Part shown: piece by piece, positions 2,578 through 44,614 of the stretch | Layout: every line of letters begins with the position of its first letter | Numbering within the stretch: position 1 is the stretch's first letter | DNA from: an uncultured Alphaproteobacteria bacterium | Lineage (GTDB): Bacteria; Pseudomonadota; Alphaproteobacteria; RF32; CAG-239 | Assembly: GCA_944391475.1 (NCBI GenBank) | Contig: CALXTR010000003.1 | Coordinates: 50,823 to 114,822 of the forward strand | Direction of reading: 5' to 3' | Length of the DNA stretch: 64,000 bases | Program-made: the position numbers and the translations under genes | Notes under the pieces: generated by a model | Seen by the model: only the letters and a program-made list of their open reading frames with translations | Database searches by the model: none | What the model was told of the DNA's origin: nothing

Positions 2578-3450
2578 ATGACCAGCAGTATTTCAAGCAC
2601 TAGCAATGTAGATGAAAACGGCGTTGCCGGATGGGAAAAAAGCGTAACGGACGTTAACAATATTGATGAAAGCTTTGCCAATACCCGTGACCTTGGCTAT
2701 ACCCGTCTTAATTATTCACGTATCACCACCATTGCCCAACTTGGTGAATATAACGAACGAGATATATATAAAGTTCAAGTTCAATCTAATGGTAAATTAA
2801 GTATCAGCTTAAGAAATGAAGGCGTTGAAGAAAACGTATTGGATTTATCCGAATATGAGCAATATCTAGATGAACTCAAACAACAACTCGACCCCGAAGG
2901 ATATGCAGAAGAACAAGCAGCCCAAAAGGCCGAGCAAGAGGATTTAGATTTATTAGAAACCACCGCACCGGGGATGACCCTCAAAGTATATATGGTCAAA
3001 AACGGCAAAGAAGTATTAATTGCCGACAGCACTGCCGAAAAAGATTCGGAAGAGTACCAAAATATGTCTGCCATTTTGAGTGGAGACTATCGTGCCACCA
3101 AAGGAAATTATTATATTGAAGTCGGCAAAACTGAAGACGCCGACCCTAAGGCCGACCACCCCTATGCGATGCAAATTTTACAAGGCACCACCTACAAGCA
3201 TGATTACGTCATGACACAAAGTGATTCCGCCGATACCACCAATAAAGAAATATCGACCACCCAGGATACATCGCTTAATTCCACCACCGGAACTTCGGCT
3301 ATATCAGCAGCCTATGCTGCTCAAATTCAAGCTGTCCGCGATGAAGGAGCTGCCAATTTGCTGGCCTCTGGTGCTAGTAACCTATCATCACTTACTGCAG
3401 ATGATAGTAACAGCAATGCCACAGCCTTATTTTCAGCCTTATTGTCCTAA
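2578..3450 (+). CDS. Acidic hypothetical protein with a pre-peptidase C-terminal (PPC)-like domain and a Ser/Thr-rich tail
   Basis: RBS aaagga upstream. PPC-like pattern: ESFANTRDLG...IAQLGEYNERDIYKVQVQSNGKLSISL...GNYYIEVG. Acidic coiled linker and low-complexity S/T C-terminus. No signal peptide. Confidence 0.5.
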   Translation: MTSSISSTSNVDENGVAGWEKSVTDVNNIDESFANTRDLGYTRLNYSRITTIAQLGEYNERDIYKVQVQSNGKLSISLRNEGVEENVLDLSEYEQYLDELKQQLDPEGYAEEQAAQKAEQEDLDLLETTAPGMTLKVYMVKNGKEVLIADSTAEKDSEEYQNMSAILSGDYRATKGNYYIEVGKTEDADPKADHPYAMQILQGTTYKHDYVMTQSDSADTTNKEISTTQDTSLNSTTGTSAISAAYAAQIQAVRDEGAANLLASGASNLSSLTADDSNSNATALFSALLS

Positions 3451-20586: not shown

Positions 20587-21654
20587 ATGTATTCGGAAAA
20601 TCTTACCATTTATGCCGTTGCGGTCATGGCTTTCATTTTAAGTTTCGGCGGCTTTTATTATTTAAGCCTCCGCAACGAAGAATTAGCCCCTCGTAAAAAT
20701 GCACCTTTTGTAATTATTTTTCCGATTTTATCTCTGAGTTTTGCTTTTTTGTTTTACCAAATATCCAACCAACAAGATTTTATTTATAACCTATCTTGGG
20801 CAAACATTTTGTTGCCTTTACTTGGAAGTGCACTGATATATGTCAGTTGGCGTTTTGTGCGCTCTGCTCATATTGCAACCCTCATGATGTTTTTTTGCTC
20901 CGCCAGCGCCTATTTTTTTCAACCAGATGAGTTTTCAATTGCTTCCACAATTGCTCCATGGCTCAGCGGTTTACTTCTGTGCTTAGGACTATTTTTCTTT
21001 ACCTTTTTTTATCCCTACATTAGTGGGATAGATGGCATTTTAGGACTTCAAACCGCCAGTATCGGACTTGGGATTTTTGCTCTTTCGTTGCTTGGCGGTG
21101 TCCCTACTTTACTTGGTGGTTTCGGCCTAAGTTTAGGCGCCATTTTCTGTGCGTTTCTGATTTTTAATTGGTATCCGGCCAAACTAAGTTTAACCAAAGG
21201 CGGCGCACATGCGATTGGTTTTATTATCGGCTGGCTGATGCTTTGCGGCACATATGAAGGTAGTGGTCCGGCAGTTATTATTTTTGCGATGTTCTTTGTC
21301 GTAGAAATCTTAAGCGCTCTGCTCAAAAAAATGACCCTTCGCCCCGAATATGCCAATCTATCGGCCAACACCAACTGCTATGAGGCAAATTTATCTGGTT
21401 TTCCACCCTCATCAATTTCTGCCAACATCTTCCGCCTTTTGTTAATTTTGCTGATGATGGGCTGCTTTGAGCTCTATGCCCCTAATGCCTATACCATTCC
21501 GTTGTTTACCATGGTAGTTACCATCTGGTATCTCTCCAAAATAAAAAATTGGCAAACTTCCGGCAAGACCATTCGCGAGCTCAACCAAGATCTGATGATT
21601 GAGATTAAAAACAATCTTAACAATGTCAAAAATCAAATCAACAAGGAGAAATAG
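20587..21654 (+). CDS. Polytopic membrane protein, divergent glycosyltransferase family 4 (MraY/WecA-like), apparently missing catalytic motifs
   Basis: ISGIDGILGL resembles DGIDGL, and FNWYPAKLSLTKGGAHAIG corresponds to FNxxPAKxFMGDxGS with the GDxGS lost. About 10 TM segments. Confidence 0.45.
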   Translation: MYSENLTIYAVAVMAFILSFGGFYYLSLRNEELAPRKNAPFVIIFPILSLSFAFLFYQISNQQDFIYNLSWANILLPLLGSALIYVSWRFVRSAHIATLMMFFCSASAYFFQPDEFSIASTIAPWLSGLLLCLGLFFFTFFYPYISGIDGILGLQTASIGLGIFALSLLGGVPTLLGGFGLSLGAIFCAFLIFNWYPAKLSLTKGGAHAIGFIIGWLMLCGTYEGSGPAVIIFAMFFVVEILSALLKKMTLRPEYANLSANTNCYEANLSGFPPSSISANIFRLLLILLMMGCFELYAPNAYTIPLFTMVVTIWYLSKIKNWQTSGKTIRELNQDLMIEIKNNLNNVKNQINKEK

Positions 21655-39520: not shown

Positions 39521-39865
39521 TTAAAGAGGCAAAATTGCCCAAATGAACTTAAACGGCAAGACCATAAATTTCTTACCATGAATCGTTTCAACAACCACAT
39601 ATTCGGTCAAACCCAAATTGCAGTTAGCCACCACAATTTCTTTTTTGCGCACCGACCTTGATGCCACCCGACAACCATAACGTAATTTTTTAGCCACATT
39701 TTCGACTGAAAAATTTTCATCTTCACCATTATCGGTTTGTGGTTTTAAACAGCCCCATAATCGTACGCTTATATGATTAGACCAAGGATAACTACACAAA
39801 GAGACATTATCCATCAAGTCGGCAGGTTGCGGCGGGCGAAAACCATCTAAACATTTCTGCTCCAT
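39521..39865 (-). CDS. Hypothetical protein (114 aa)
   Basis: Clean ORF upstream of addB. I recognise no family. Confidence 0.4.
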   Translation of the reverse strand: MEQKCLDGFRPPQPADLMDNVSLCSYPWSNHISVRLWGCLKPQTDNGEDENFSVENVAKKLRYGCRVASRSVRKKEIVVANCNLGLTEYVVVETIHGKKFMVLPFKFIWAILPL

Positions 39866-39912: not shown

Positions 39913-40506
39913 TTACTTCTGACGCAAATAAGCTACAAATTTTTCCAGAGCTCGACCCCGATGCGAGATAAGTGCTTTTTCTTCTGCGCTAAAATGACCA
40001 AATGTCTTATCATATCCTTCAGGAATAAAAATCGGGTCATAACCAAAACCGGCATTACCGCTTTTTTCCAAAGCTATTTTTCCATCCACCCGACCTTCAA
40101 AAACTTTAGTTTCCTCACCGGGAACCGCTAAGGCTAGAACACAAGAAAAGTGAGCACTTCGGTTGTCAAAACCACTTTGCTTCAGCTCAGCTAATAACAT
40201 ATCCATACCTTTGTCAAAATCGCGGTTTGGTGCATAGCGAGCCGAATATACTCCCGGCCGGCCCGAAAGCGCATCAACACACAAGCCTGAATCATCGGCC
40301 AAACAAGGCAAACCTGAAAGTTTGGCTAAAGTTTCAGCCTTCAGGCGCGAATTTTCTTCAAAAGTAGTTCCGGTTTCTTCCACATCCGGAAGACTTAAAT
40401 CTTGAGCCGAACAAACTTCAATCTCAAGCGGAGCCAACATTTTTCTAAATTCGGCAATCTTACCTTGGTTGTGCGAGGCAATAACGATTTTTTTGAAATT
40501 AAACAT
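39913..40506 (-). CDS. rdgB: dITP/XTP pyrophosphatase (Ham1/RdgB)
   Basis: IVIASHNQGKIAEF, and FGYDPIF...KTFGH. Conserved rph-rdgB pair. Confidence 0.9.
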   Translation of the reverse strand: MFNFKKIVIASHNQGKIAEFRKMLAPLEIEVCSAQDLSLPDVEETGTTFEENSRLKAETLAKLSGLPCLADDSGLCVDALSGRPGVYSARYAPNRDFDKGMDMLLAELKQSGFDNRSAHFSCVLALAVPGEETKVFEGRVDGKIALEKSGNAGFGYDPIFIPEGYDKTFGHFSAEEKALISHRGRALEKFVAYLRQK

Positions 40507-40507
40507 T

Positions 40508-41221
40508 TTATTTTTTTCCTAAAGCTTGTTTTTGTGCATCAATCAGTTCGGCAATACCTTTTTTAGCCAAAGCATACAAAGCATGAAACTGATCATCATC
40601 AAAAGGCATACCTTCGGCTGTTCCTTGGATTTCTACAATTTTGCCACTTTCAGTCAGCACAAAATTCATATCCGCCTGCGCATTAGAATCTTCCACATAG
40701 TCGACATCTAAAACCGGCTCTCCGTTATAGAGCGCACAAGAAACCGCGGCCACAGCTTCTTTAAGCGGATTAACCAAAAGTTTGCCTTCTTGTTGGAGTT
40801 TGGCTAAGGCAATAGATAAGGCCACATAACCACCGGTAATTGAGGCAGTACGAGTTCCACCGTCAGCCTGAATAACATCGCAGTCAATACAGATTGAAAT
40901 ATCTTTCATGGCGTTAAGATCGACCACAGCCCGCAAAGCACGCCCAACCAAACGCTGAATTTCTTGAGTGCGCCCCGAAGGTTTGGTTGTTTCACGCGCT
41001 ACCCTAACTTGAGTTGAGCGCGGCAGCATTCCATATTCGGCCGTAATCCACCCTTTGTTTTGGCCTTTGAGCCAAGCCGGAACTTTATCCTGCACACTTG
41101 CCGTACAAACCACATGCGTATTGCCACATTTAATCAAACAAGAACCTTCAGCATAAGGATTAAAATTGGGTACAATTTCAATTTTGCGGAGTTCATCTGC
41201 TTTTCGATTAGAATTTCTCAT
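40508..41221 (-). CDS. rph: Ribonuclease PH
   Basis: R(A/P)DELR, and GSCLI.GNT.V.C.AS; 237 aa. Confidence 0.95.
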
Positions 41222-41268: not shown

Positions 41269-43305
41269 TCATAAATGACCGCTTGTCAACAGCTTATAAT
41301 ATTGGTAGACACTACCTTCTTTCACATCCCAGCTAAAATCTTTGCGCATCGCCGCCACTTCCATTTCAGTCAGTTTTTGGGGATGATTAGCAAACACATC
41401 TAAAGCCTTGAGCAAAACATCGGCATAAGCATTAACATTATTTTTGAAGTGCTTGCCGTCTTTTTCACTGCCATAGACCTGACGAGTGTTACCAAAGAAG
41501 ACTAAAGTCCGAAAACCGTCCGTTCCGTCTTCAATCGTATCCACCAACCCTCCGGTTGACATTGCCACCGGCAGACTTCCTTTGGCCATGGCCTCCATCT
41601 GGGTCAGTCCGCAGGGCTCAAAGCGACACGGCATCATATAAAAATCACTCGCCAGCTGAATAGCATAGGCAAACTCGTCTTTATAGCCGCGGAAGACAAA
41701 GATTCTTTTTGCTGCTTCTGGGTTCAAGTCCGCCACGGTATCTTTGAGTTTCATCAAATGCTCAAAGCATTTCATATCACCGGCGCCACCCAAAATAAAT
41801 AACGGCGCGACCTTAATTTTTTTGGCCTTATAAAGTTCAATAATGGCACTGGCCACAATGTCGTAACCTTTTTGTTCCACCAAACGGCTGGTCGCGCAAA
41901 ACATCGGGATTTCATCGCTGATATTTTCCAACTCCGAAATATCTTCAAATTTATAGAAATTAATCAGCGGCAAAGTTTTGCGACGATAATCGGCATCAAC
42001 CGCCAACTTAGAGATAAGGCGGATAAATTCGCGTTTGTTTTGCTTTTTGATTTCTAAAGAATTTTCATCATAACAACCAAAATTAAAGCCGACAAAATGG
42101 TTATTGATACAATTGATTTTTTTAGGATTAGGGGTAATCAGTTTCTTGTCATAACCATTAACAATCCCGACAAAAGTTCCATTTTCTTTACGCAGATTGA
42201 GGAGTTTGCAAAAATCATAACCAAAATCGGGCTCTTTAGAAACTTCTTCACAATAGTTGCGCGAAACCGTCACCACCCGATCTGCCAAATGGAAATTGCA
42301 ACAAGCCTGATTATAAACCCCGTCCACCACTAGAGAGTTATGAATACGCGGATTATCTTTACGACAAGCCTTAGCATTTTTGAGCACCGGTTTGATGGCA
42401 TTTTCATACAAAGAGTTAAGAATGCGCACGGTGTTTTGATTATCCCAGCCCTGATACCCCAAATGATGAGCCAAATGGATAACCGGAATATTACGGATTC
42501 TCTCTGCGGTCTGAGCCTCCAAACGCCCTTGTTTTTGGAGCATCACGGTCATATACTTGGTCAAACCGGCAATTGCCCCGCTGTGCCAGTCATTAGCAAT
42601 CAGGACATTCGGACAAGAGATTTCGACCAAATCATCATTATCGGCACACAAACTTTTTAGCAATACAAAAACTGCTTTAGAGAAGAAGGCAAAACGCTCC
42701 ACCTCGTTAATACCCAGCTTATTGAGCACATAGCAACCGTCCTGACAATCCGGATTGCGATAATCGGTAGTAATGCTAAAGAAACGATGATTTTTCAAGA
42801 AAATATAATCAACCAACCCTTTTTTAGCGGTATAAACGCCCACATCAAAGGACTGCAGAACATTATTTTTTCCAACAAAGGGAACATTGATAGTAGAGAT
42901 TTTTTTGATTTCGATAGAACGGTTTTCGGCACCGGTATAGATATTTTTACGAAGGAAAGCTTTTTTGTGTTTAGTATCGCCAAGATAAAGCGGAGTAACG
43001 ACAGTGATTTTATCACCCTGATTTTGGAAAGTGGAGTTAAATGCCTCAGGCAACTCAGTTGCCACCACTCCAAGCCCTCCAACTTTCATAAACGTCGCTG
43101 TTTCAGAAGAAATCATCCAGGCATTAATTTTGTGGATATTGGGCCATTTACCCGCCGCAGCACATTGTTGTTTTGCCACCTCATAAATCTCGGAAATCTG
43201 CTCACTCGGTATTGCTTCACCATGCAGTGCCGAAATTTTACCAAACTCGATCTTTGATAACAACCCCCGCTGATTAACTTTACTTGACGTAGGCTTATCT
43301 ATCAT
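41269..43305 (-). CDS. GT5-family (glycogen/starch-synthase-like) glycosyltransferase with an N-terminal extension and internal insertions
   Basis: KVGGLGVV corresponds to the GlgA K(T)GGL(A)DV motif. C-terminal GT-B motifs RLVEQKG and FEPCGLTQMEAM. 678-688 aa against about 480 for GlgA. Sits where hrcA is expected, between rph and grpE. Confidence 0.7.
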   Translation of the reverse strand: MIDKPTSSKVNQRGLLSKIEFGKISALHGEAIPSEQISEIYEVAKQQCAAAGKWPNIHKINAWMISSETATFMKVGGLGVVATELPEAFNSTFQNQGDKITVVTPLYLGDTKHKKAFLRKNIYTGAENRSIEIKKISTINVPFVGKNNVLQSFDVGVYTAKKGLVDYIFLKNHRFFSITTDYRNPDCQDGCYVLNKLGINEVERFAFFSKAVFVLLKSLCADNDDLVEISCPNVLIANDWHSGAIAGLTKYMTVMLQKQGRLEAQTAERIRNIPVIHLAHHLGYQGWDNQNTVRILNSLYENAIKPVLKNAKACRKDNPRIHNSLVVDGVYNQACCNFHLADRVVTVSRNYCEEVSKEPDFGYDFCKLLNLRKENGTFVGIVNGYDKKLITPNPKKINCINNHFVGFNFGCYDENSLEIKKQNKREFIRLISKLAVDADYRRKTLPLINFYKFEDISELENISDEIPMFCATSRLVEQKGYDIVASAIIELYKAKKIKVAPLFILGGAGDMKCFEHLMKLKDTVADLNPEAAKRIFVFRGYKDEFAYAIQLASDFYMMPCRFEPCGLTQMEAMAKGSLPVAMSTGGLVDTIEDGTDGFRTLVFFGNTRQVYGSEKDGKHFKNNVNAYADVLLKALDVFANHPQKLTEMEVAAMRKDFSWDVKEGSVYQYYKLLTSGHL

Positions 43306-43474
43306 TTTTACTCTCTCGCAACCACAAAAACACACCCCTCATCATTGCACAACTTCCTTTCTTTTCACAAAAGGGAGTATGCACCAACATAACTTCCGCT
43401 ATTGACTTGTTGTGTAATAATCACTAAATATCATAATATATACAAGCATAATCCAAAAGTTTAAAGAGGAAAAA

Positions 43475-44077
43475 ATGAAAAAAGAAAAAATAGTTGATAA
43501 ACCCGAATGTGAAGAAACTCAAACTGCGGAAAGTGAGCTTGAGCAAGAGCTTGAGAGTGTTGATACCGCTGAGAGCGAAACCGAAAATGAGCTCGAAGAT
43601 TTAGAGTTTTTGAAAGCGGAAAATCAACGTCTTAAAGAAGATTTTTTAAGAGCTTATGCAGATGCCGAAAACATCAAAAAACGCTGCGCCCAAGAAATTG
43701 AGAAAAACAACAAATATGCCATTTCCTCTTTTGCCAAAAGTTTGTTAAGCGTTGCCGACAATCTTCACCGTGCAATTGAAGCCATTCCCGAAGATAAAAA
43801 ACAAAGCTGTACTGAGGCCATGAGCCTGCTTAAAGGGGTTGAGCTTACCGAGGCAGAACTGATGAAAGTTTTTGATAAATTCGGGATTAAGAAGATGGAA
43901 ATTATTGGTACAGTATTTGACCCCAACTACCATCAGGTGATTCAGGAAGTTGAAGACAAAGAAAAACCCAACGGCACCATTGTTGCGGAACTCCAAACTG
44001 GATATATGATTAACAATCGCATTTTGCGTGAGGCCATGGTTGTAGTTACCAAAGGCGGACCGAGCGAACAGCATTAA
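43475..44077 (+). CDS. grpE: Nucleotide exchange factor GrpE
   Basis: Acidic N-terminus, coiled coil, and the GrpE core (YADAENIKKR, FDPNYHQ). Confidence 0.9.
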   Translation: MKKEKIVDKPECEETQTAESELEQELESVDTAESETENELEDLEFLKAENQRLKEDFLRAYADAENIKKRCAQEIEKNNKYAISSFAKSLLSVADNLHRAIEAIPEDKKQSCTEAMSLLKGVELTEAELMKVFDKFGIKKMEIIGTVFDPNYHQVIQEVEDKEKPNGTIVAELQTGYMINNRILREAMVVVTKGGPSEQH

Positions 44078-44100: not shown

Positions 44101-44136
44101 ACACTACTTACCGGAAAGGGTAAGTAGTGTTTTTTG
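44101..44136 (+). terminator. Rho-independent terminator after grpE
   Basis: acactacttaccggaaagggtaagtagtgttttttg. Confidence 0.75.
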
Positions 44137-44368: not shown

Positions 44369-44614
44369 ATGAGTCACAATTACCGCCGTCAAGCTTGGCA
44401 AGCCTGTCAGCAAGAGATTGGCGAACAAATTAAGAATATGCGCTTAGAGTTGGATTTACCTCCACAAATTGCCGCAGAACTTTTACATATCGGATTAAAC
44501 CAGCTTTTGTACCTTGAAAACGGCTATATTGGGAAAATGCAAATTACCGTTCTCCATGCACTGGCTTATAAATATCACTATAAGTTAAAGATAAGCTTTG
44601 AGAAAAAGAATTAG
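44369..44614 (+). CDS. XRE-family helix-turn-helix protein (81 aa), paralog 2
   Basis: LDLPPQIAAELLHIGLNQLLYLENG, with the C-terminus AYKYHYKLKISFEKK identical to paralog 1. Confidence 0.7.
   Translation: MSHNYRRQAWQACQQEIGEQIKNMRLELDLPPQIAAELLHIGLNQLLYLENGYIGKMQITVLHALAYKYHYKLKISFEKKN

Follow-up and report, generated by a model that had tools for sequence, protein, structure and literature searches.

The 64-kb window analyzed here (the whole stretch of 64,000 nucleotides from contig CALXTR010000003.1 of an uncultured alphaproteobacterium) carries, between rph and grpE, a gene for an unusually long protein of glycosyltransferase family GT5, to which bacterial glycogen synthases (GlgA) and starch synthases belong. 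We consider it likely that this protein is a functional cytoplasmic GT5 enzyme that makes α-glucan from nucleoside diphosphate (NDP)-glucose, and that it belongs to a discrete clade of long GT5 proteins. Databases already call these proteins glycogen or starch synthase. In the databases and literature searched, we found no description of a long-type clade defined by this architecture, of its confinement to metagenome-assembled genomes (MAGs) of gut Alphaproteobacteria, to Gastranaerophilales and to a few other anaerobes, or of its fixed site beside grpE in place of hrcA.

The enzyme, a member of CAZy family GT5, would act in the cytoplasm as a retaining GT-B glucosyltransferase and transfer glucose from an NDP-glucose donor to the non-reducing end of an α-1,4-glucan, as glycogen and starch synthases do, with an intracellular storage-type α-glucan as the predicted product. 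A folded helical extension and five insertions, together ≈200 residues, surround a canonical catalytic core. In the alphaproteobacterial lineage, the gene occupies the slot of hrcA and is kept as a divergent pair with grpE, with which it would share a control region.

Gene model and GT5 domains

The initial annotation had described an over-long GT5 open reading frame (ORF) on the minus strand with KVGGLG and E-x7-E motifs. The ORF exists as first described, at 41269..43335, with 688 codons counted from a GTG, and both motifs were borne out by the translation. A Pfam search identified Glyco_transf_5 (PF08323; E 3.6e-28; 99.3 bits, cut-off 22.7), followed by a group-1 domain, Glycos_transf_1 (PF00534/PF13692; 41.2 bits for PF00534, cut-off 26.4), which places the protein in the GT5 superfamily.

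The GTG at 43335 is probably not the true start. Homologues are 673–681 aa long; in the related locus L002 (84% identical), a stop one codon upstream of the equivalent Met closes the frame; and a Shine–Dalgarno-like GAGAG precedes the ATG at 43305. A 678-aa product starting at this ATG is therefore most likely, and the long-type GT5 glucan synthase gene was taken to run from the conserved ATG through 678 codons and the stop (41269..43305, minus strand). The ten extra codons after the mechanical GTG (43306..43335, minus strand), whose coding is not conserved in relatives, would probably be an untranslated leader. Residue numbers refer to the 678-aa form throughout.

The ratio of nonsynonymous to synonymous substitution rates (dN/dS) was 0.060 and 0.070 against the two closest orthologues, L001 and L002, respectively, indicating purifying selection. 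With the intact ORF, these values exclude a pseudogene or artefact.

Catalytic residues and predicted activity

The catalytic and NDP-glucose-binding residues of the E. coli enzyme are retained. E9, K15, D137, H161 and N246 of E. coli GlgA align to E68, K74, D239, H280 and N383, and R300, K305, Y355 and E377 align to R474, K479, Y541 and E563. In an alignment of 63 long-type sequences, these positions were invariant or at least 90% conserved; K74, D239, H280, N383, R474, K479 and E563 were all invariant except K74, which was at least 90% conserved. K74 lies in the KVGGLG motif (43069..43086, minus strand), where G76, G77 and L78 were invariant, and E563 lies in the invariant E-x7-E motif, EPCGLTQME (41593..41619, minus strand).

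All known GT5 activities are glucan synthesis, with adenosine diphosphate (ADP)-glucose, uridine diphosphate (UDP)-glucose or both as donors, and the prokaryotic synthases of the family are grouped accordingly by their use of ADP-glucose, UDP-glucose or either donor (PMC11046441). The Tyr that stacks on the adenine is kept (Y541, equivalent to E. coli Y355) and is suggestive of ADP-glucose. This Tyr and its surroundings give no simple donor rule in GT5 (PMC6086201), so that the choice between ADP- and UDP-glucose is not assignable from the Tyr alone.

The KxGGL motif has S, Q, N, A, P, T or F in place of its Lys in ≈25 cluster representatives of distant long-type proteins, which retain the anchors D, H, N, R and E; the window lineage keeps the Lys. 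The replacement may be partly alignment noise or may reflect functional divergence within the clade. One distant relative (P0140; L089:10001-13141) is a long GT5 fused at its N-terminus to an NAD-dependent epimerase/dehydratase of the short-chain dehydrogenase/reductase (SDR) type. This fusion ties the clade to nucleotide-sugar metabolism, without naming the sugar nucleotide. The P0140 gene also adjoins two radical S-adenosylmethionine genes.

No hydrophobic or signal segment was found in the window protein or in the 119 close homologues scanned, and the protein is therefore most likely cytoplasmic.

Structure of the extension and insertions

AlphaFold2, run on the clade alignment, produced a model with a mean predicted local distance difference test (pLDDT) score of 90.3 and a predicted template modelling (pTM) score of 0.88, in which disorder was limited to residues 1–11. 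When the model was searched against the PDB with Foldseek, the first 16 matches were all GT5 glycogen or starch synthases, consistent with a GT-B fold of two Rossmann domains. About 450 of the 678 residues align to solved GT5 structures, which lack an equivalent for roughly a third of the protein.

Part of the additional length is an N-terminal extension, residues 1–59 (43129..43305; this and the following segments are on the minus strand), which is missing in E. coli GlgA. An extension of ≈70 aa had been proposed in the initial annotation, and this agrees with the E. coli GlgA alignment, which gives ≈69 aa in the 688-aa reading and ≈59 aa in the 678-aa form. In the model, residues 12–60 are helical, forming three short helices with pLDDT of 80–94 as 10-residue block means. 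The extension ends in a W-P element, in which W54 is invariant and P55 nearly so; W63, just downstream, is also invariant.

The remaining length lies in internal insertions, of which the initial annotation had noted several and the alignment to E. coli GlgA resolved five. We measured the spacing of six catalytic anchor residues in 134 sequences and found a distribution that was bimodal with few exceptions, separating long from canonical proteins. Insertion A (residues 111–165; 42811..42975) lengthens the β-hairpins of the N-domain, with strands at 115–162 in the model; it is gap-free in the clade and accompanies a K-to-D spacing of 165, compared to 158 or more in long and 117–139 in most canonical proteins. 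Insertion B (residues 253–269; 42499..42549) adds a helix past the DWH motif (264–271 in the model). The D-to-H spacing is 41 in the window protein, in all aligned sequences of its clade and in most other long-type proteins, compared to 22–31 in most canonical GlgA. Insertion C (residues 301–321; 42343..42405), also gap-free, coincides with a helix at 292–310, and the H-to-N spacing is 103 (100 or more in long proteins, 79–85 in most canonical ones). Insertion D (residues 433–470; 41896..42009) adds helices (438–444 and 457–465) and a strand (449–451) between the Rossmann domains; here the N-to-R spacing is 91, compared to 84 or more in long and 52–56 in most canonical proteins. The R-to-E spacing is 89, in the long range of 85–102 rather than the 74–79 of most canonical sequences. 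Finally, insertion E (residues 603–622; 41440..41499), defined by the alignment to E. coli GlgA and gap-free, forms an extra β-hairpin in the C-domain (strands 603–605 and 608–611).

The extension and the five insertions contained no gaps within the window clade and almost none in eight relatives at 31–36% identity. Their sequence entropy was normal, and they were only moderately less conserved than the core, with majority-residue frequencies of 0.52–0.74 and 0.70–0.83, respectively. We therefore regard these segments, ≈200 residues in all, as structured, selected parts of the enzyme. Low-complexity linkers as the source of the extra length are ruled out by the gap-free alignment, the normal entropy and the confident fold. 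The enzyme is thus elaborated rather than padded, as originally proposed, with extra segments common to relatives at 30–40% identity. As a reasonable guess, these segments probably add glucan-binding, oligomerization or (self-)priming surfaces.

Extent and distribution of the long GT5 clade

In a HMMER search that covered 1.84 billion cluster representatives exhaustively, the closest full-length long relatives scored 260–475 bits and more distant ones ≈120–215 bits. Canonical GlgA proteins of ≈480 aa reached only ≈100–115 bits, mostly over the C-domain. The matches that followed the window clade were proteins of 685–1120 aa at 27–42% identity, many of them aligning end to end (≈residues 50–677). 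No eukaryote-named protein occurred among the 120 best matches of either profile search. In a neighbor-joining distance tree on 477 trimmed columns with 100 bootstraps, the long proteins formed one clade (100/100), within which the window lineage was one subclade (100/100).

We define the long-type clade, for which there is no curated model, by the W..P..W extension, the five insertions, a D-to-H spacing of 41 and monophyly. The window protein shows all of these features, and the insertion lengths are fixed over 30–96% identity.

A scan of one genome per species identified 236 genomes encoding a relative. Context and labels were analyzed for the best 80 of these 236 (L001–L080), which with the window make 81 sequences. 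Nearly all of the 80 are gut, rumen or faecal MAGs, labelled as uncultured Alphaproteobacteria, 'Azospirillum sp.', Proteobacteria bacterium CAG:495 or Candidatus Scatocola, the last placed by NCBI in the Alphaproteobacteria, Rhodospirillales. With 96% protein identity, L001 and the window represent one species. We place these relatives in order RF32 of GTDB. For rumen members of RF32, reduced genomes of 1.59 Mb are reported (PMC8199421). The reduced genome assumed in the initial annotation is supported indirectly, by homologues at 60% identity on contigs of 1.94–2.04 Mb. We found nothing useful in the literature on RF32 or CAG-239 with glycogen.

Genes for a trimeric [FeFe]-hydrogenase (NuoE-like, NuoF-like and a HydA with a NuoG-like N-terminus) lie near the GT5 gene in ≈35 related loci, often with the NuoE-like gene directly downstream of it (examples are L048:12096-12578, L042:14014-15708 and L018:6713-8485). 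They were not present at that position in the window. Because of the lumen sources of the MAGs and the hydrogenase genes, the host lineage looks like one of small-genome, fermentative, H2-producing gut anaerobes rather than intracellular symbionts.

The named distant members are all annotated 'glycogen/starch synthase' and come from Candidatus Gastranaerophilales or 'Cyanobacteria bacterium SIG29' (gut Melainabacteria). Like the window lineage, the Gastranaerophilales are gut anaerobes, and their long GT5 proteins (e.g., P0156 and P0164) have the same insertions, a D-to-H spacing of 41 in the aligned representatives and 27–33% identity end to end. They are mostly ≈840–1000 aa long, with an N-terminal extension of 200–330 aa, whereas the window protein has 678 aa. 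A hydrophobic segment resembling a membrane anchor was found in the N-terminal extension of 91 of the 115 Gastranaerophilales-type proteins (P0355–P0469), and also in 36 of 60 other long-type representatives (relatives P0122–P0210). A membrane anchor would be unusual for a GT5 glucan synthase. A potential for glycogen storage has been ascribed to Gastranaerophilus genomes (PMC5877343). The occurrence of the clade in gut and rumen alphaproteobacterial MAGs and in gut Gastranaerophilales suggests horizontal exchange between gut anaerobes, in whichever direction a gene may have moved.

Comparison with known glycogen and starch synthases

When the window protein was compared to solved structures, sequence scores were 86.9 bits for E. 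coli glycogen synthase (GS), 86.9 for the CLg1 granule-bound starch synthase (GBSS), 75 for rice GBSSI, 71.2 for A. tumefaciens GS and 58.9 for Arabidopsis starch synthase 4 (SS4). By these scores, the protein appears about equally distant from all solved GT5 structures. It is only 20–26% identical to E. coli GS (2qzs/3d1j) and A. tumefaciens GS (1rzu). The best named GlgA in annotated replicons was that of Lactiplantibacillus plantarum, at 26.4% identity, and alphaproteobacterial GlgAs were no closer. The protein thus does not nest within alphaproteobacterial GlgA, the outcome that the initial annotation had named as evidence against its reading: the A. tumefaciens enzyme scored 71 bits and that of E. 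coli 87, and the window protein is no closer to alphaproteobacterial than to E. coli GlgA. Bacterial GlgA is compact (≈475–500 aa with canonical anchor spacing; 477 aa in E. coli), unlike the window protein, which has 678 aa, a folded extension of 59 aa and five insertions of fixed length.

Plant and cyanobacterial starch synthases (AtSS4, 6gne; CLg1 GBSS, 6gnf; rice GBSSI; barley SSI) are 19–26% identical to the window protein and do not share its insertions, with only ≈450 residues aligning. Pfam detected no long coiled-coil or carbohydrate-binding module (CBM) N-terminus of the SSIII/IV type in the protein, which has neither the coiled-coil/CBM53 architecture nor the closest affinity expected of a plant or chlamydial SSIII/SSIV-type enzyme. 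It also differs in sequence family and insertions from the animal and fungal glycogen synthases of family GT3.

The eukaryotic UDP-glucose GT5 lineage is a deep, separate branch of the family (PMC6086201). UDP-glucose GT5 enzymes (Chlamydia trachomatis, Aeromonas GlgA, archaeal GS and eukaryotic) show that neither ADP-glucose nor GlgC is indispensable in this family, and that its members can also make glucans for purposes other than storage (PMC11046441, PMC6086201). GlgC-independent GT5 enzymes are described for Chlamydia and Aeromonas and, by implication, Bacteroidetes (PMC11046441, PMC10395257). By analogy, the UDP-glucose enzymes may illustrate how a GT5 gene could function with no glgC linked to it.

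Glycogen partner genes

The window gene does not lie in an operon of the glgBXCAP type. We scanned 58 window ORFs with Pfam (three short ones and all those of at least 150 aa, except any located antisense inside a longer ORF), rescanning those without a match at E ≤ 0.1. Neither glgC, glgB, glgP nor glgX was detected among the 58 ORFs, and tblastn with the five E. coli Glg proteins matched only the GT5 gene itself in the window. The same tblastn search within ±10 kb in the 80 related species found none of these genes. The absence of nearby glgC, glgB and glgP noted in the initial annotation therefore extends to the related loci. Weak matches to E. coli GlgC in two loci (L006 and L052) came from a 242-aa NTP_transferase encoded between rdgB and addB, which is probably not GlgC. 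This gene occurs in nine loci (e.g., L069:13439-14167) and is not present in the window; from its position, the protein is presumably MurU-like.

The GT5 gene in the hrcA slot

In the Sinorhizobium meliloti chromosome, the gene order is rdgB(−), a VOC-family gene(−), rph(−), hrcA(+) and grpE(+). In the window, rdgB (39913-40506, minus strand; Pfam Ham1p_like), rph (40508-41221, minus strand; Pfam RNase_PH) and grpE (43475-44077, plus strand; Pfam GrpE, 4.1e-49) flank the GT5 gene in the same order and orientation, and the hrcA slot holds a 2-kb gene on the opposite strand. The placement of the GT5 gene in the hrcA position, proposed in the initial annotation, thus matches the S. meliloti order, except that it is transcribed in the opposite direction to hrcA and divergently from grpE. 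An hrcA–grpE operon is reported for Caulobacter (Roberts et al. 1996, as cited in PMC8119881).

As to hrcA itself, no Pfam match was found among the 58 window ORFs, and tblastn with S. meliloti HrcA matched nothing in the window or within 10 kb in the 80 related species, while a GrpE control matched 79 loci. The gene is therefore missing from this locus, as originally noted.

The pairing of GT5 with grpE is a fixed feature of the lineage. grpE is the immediate divergent neighbor of the GT5 gene in 79 of the 81 sequences, and the other two end at contig ends (79/79 assessable). The surroundings are more mobile: rph-rdgB-addB-addA lies downstream of GT5 in ≈37 of the 81 sequences, downstream of grpE in nine (L009–L011, L015, L020, L025, L030, L031 and L042), as if the GT5–grpE pair had been inverted as a unit, in another orientation in three, and beyond the 10-kb flank in the rest. 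The recurring neighbors in related loci are grpE, rph-rdgB-addBA, hydrogenase genes and Lpt/fab genes. In seven distant long-type contexts, there were no grpE, rph or glg genes nearby, and the GT5–grpE pairing is therefore specific to the window lineage. These contexts include that of a diderm anaerobe (L087), the one context examined of the more distant group that contains the Gastranaerophilales, which had no grpE nearby.

In the window, rph is co-directional with the GT5 gene and starts 47 bp past its stop. A scan found no terminator-like site on the minus strand between the GT5 stop and rph, and co-transcription of GT5, rph and rdgB is therefore plausible; this arrangement is not conserved across the clade.

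The GT5–grpE intergenic region

The divergent genes are separated by 169 bp in the window (43306..43474), and the control region common to the pair is 170–400 bp in the alphaproteobacterial lineage. A promoter-like motif on the grpE side occupies window positions 43396-43476, in the order CTCTTGACTTGT ... ACTAAAT ... TATATATACA ... TTTAAAGAGG-ATG, and was found in all 79 related regions; TTGACTT with conserved flanks likewise occurred in 79/79. In the window spacer, TTGACT (43402-43407) is followed after a 17-nt spacer by TAAATA (43425-43430), and AAGAGG stands ahead of the grpE ATG at 43475. From its sequence, the motif looks like a strong promoter and ribosome-binding site for grpE. The palindromes CTTGAC-TT-GTCAAG and TTAGT-C-ACTAA, present within the motif in many species although not in the window, could form an operator for a regulator in a lineage without hrcA at the locus.

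No conserved element on the GT5 side and no strict sigma-32 consensus were found in the 79 intergenic regions, and no CIRCE element (an inverted repeat that controls chaperone expression) was found in the window within three mismatches. Sigma-70 matches were no more frequent in the region than in shuffled sequence.

Alternative explanations

Several points weigh against our preferred reading of a GT5 enzyme that makes α-glucan from NDP-glucose. The window protein scored under the curated cut-off of all 12 NCBIfam models for GlgA and starch synthases, with 213.7 bits for TIGR02095 (cut-off 328.45) and 171.1 bits for the best equivalog, NF001898 (cut-off 603). The NDP-glucose:α-1,4-glucan synthase activity of the long clade is a prediction from sequence and a structural model, and the replacement of the KxGGL Lys in distant members hints at non-uniform function across the clade. 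Moreover, glgC, glgB, glgP and glgX were absent from the 64-kb window and from within ±10 kb in the 80 related species and the seven distant relatives. With none of these genes in those 87 contexts and the window, a complete storage pathway is putative.

The protein could be an ordinary GlgA that uses ADP-glucose from an unlinked GlgC, works with unlinked GlgB, GlgP and GlgX, and carries its extra segments as decoration without functional effect. This is the most serious of the alternatives, though we think it rather less probable than not. The conserved Y541 and the phosphate ligands R474 and K479 would fit such an enzyme, as would the glycogen/starch synthase label that NCBI gives its relatives, and in bacteria the glg genes are frequently spread over more than one operon. 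However, the protein falls under all GlgA cut-offs, no linked glg partner was found in the 87 contexts, and most Gastranaerophilales homologues have a hydrophobic N-terminal segment that is found in no canonical GlgA. Insertions that are length-fixed over 30–96% identity and under purifying selection are also unlike mere decoration. An ordinary GlgA with unlinked partners is quite possible as far as the pathway is concerned, but it leaves the fixed, selected insertions unexplained. A different elaboration of the enzyme, in which the ≈200 extra residues redirect glucosylation to a small molecule, lipid or protein, would account for the third of the protein without counterpart in solved GT5 structures and for the variable KxGGL Lys in the wider clade. 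We regard it as very improbable, because the glucose and acceptor contacts of E. coli GS (E9, D137, W138, H161 and N246) are invariant by alignment; nor is any GT5 activity besides glucan synthesis listed (PMC11046441).

The initial annotation had argued that a lone, elaborated synthase in a reduced genome points to a non-glycogen role, such as the use of a host-derived NDP-sugar or the synthesis of a surface or capsular α-glucan. The reduced genomes of rumen RF32 bacteria speak for this insofar as our placement of the lineage in that order is right. There are also precedents, since the GlgA of Chlamydia uses host UDP-glucose and that of Aeromonas makes a surface glucan exported via WecP/WaaL (PMC11046441), and the anchor-like segments of Gastranaerophilales homologues, the fusion of P0140 to an NDP-sugar epimerase/dehydratase-type domain and the lack of a nearby glgC would be in keeping with it. 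The proposal nevertheless did not hold up well, and we consider it doubtful: neither the window protein nor its 119 close homologues have a signal peptide or anchor, the catalytic residues are kept, and the relatives are gut-lumen MAGs with hydrogenase genes rather than intracellular bacteria. No export, ligase or flippase gene is adjacent in the window or conserved beside GT5 in the related loci. In the window, no gene for export or polysaccharide assembly adjoins the GT5 gene, and the nearest such ORF, a Glycos_transf_4 protein of the WecA/MraY type (20587-21654), is ≈20 kb away.

The constant neighborhood raises another possibility, that GT5 and grpE are co-regulated and that the enzyme responds to heat or another stress by making a glucan for protection or as a reserve, at a site where hrcA was replaced. 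In the 79 assessable loci the pair always stays together although rph-rdgB-addBA changes place or orientation around it, hrcA is missing at all of these loci, and the spacer is short (169 bp in the window) with a clade-wide motif and, in many species, palindromes. Yet the conserved motif reads as a grpE promoter only, with nothing conserved on the GT5 side and neither a sigma-32 consensus nor CIRCE; the pairing is missing in the seven distant long-GT5 contexts, and the two genes could be neighbors by a chance event that became fixed in a single lineage. Coupling to stress therefore seems unlikely. We would give a similarly low standing to a broader scenario, in which a self-sufficient, GlgC-independent (e.g., UDP-glucose-dependent) synthase, with extra segments for priming and glucan handling, was exchanged between two reduced-genome gut lineages, displaced hrcA in one of them and became wired to grpE, coupling glucan to stress.

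Glycogen-type storage is thought to aid the persistence of gut bacteria (PMC10395257), and only ≈20% of microbes are now estimated to have the classical GlgC–GlgA pathway (PMC11046441). The GT5 enzyme common to these two widespread, uncultured gut lineages falls outside all curated models. If its additions alter donor use, priming or localization, the enzyme would represent a new route to α-glucan with a minimal gene set. If they change nothing, what follows is a better annotation rule, the loss of hrcA from its usual locus and a GT5–grpE synteny marker that exposes mis-binned contigs.

Other features of the window and related contigs

A terminator-like hairpin lies 3′ of grpE (44101-44130). 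It is followed by an 81-aa ORF (44369-44614, plus strand) that by eye resembles a small helix-turn-helix protein; this ORF had no significant Pfam match, and tblastn found it in two other loci only, L001 and L002. A 114-aa ORF of unknown function (39521-39865) is present between rdgB and addB. Farther away, ORFs of 1013 aa (49599-52640, minus strand) and 507 aa (52801-54324, plus strand) adjoin an lptF/lptG-lptD-surA cluster, and ORFs of 290 aa (2578-3450, plus strand) and 300 aa (62654-63556, plus strand) lie elsewhere in the window. None of these four had a meaningful Pfam match at E ≤ 0.1, the 507-aa ORF giving only a chance-level match (E 0.064).

Contigs with a GT5 gene of this type (L057, L078 and those encoding proteins P0294 and P0342) are labelled as Bacteroidaceae, Lachnospiraceae, Lactobacillaceae or Lactobacillus, and two of them, L057 and L078, also carry a divergent grpE. 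The oddly labelled contigs look like mis-binned alphaproteobacterial sequences, and the GT5–grpE pair could serve to mark such contamination.

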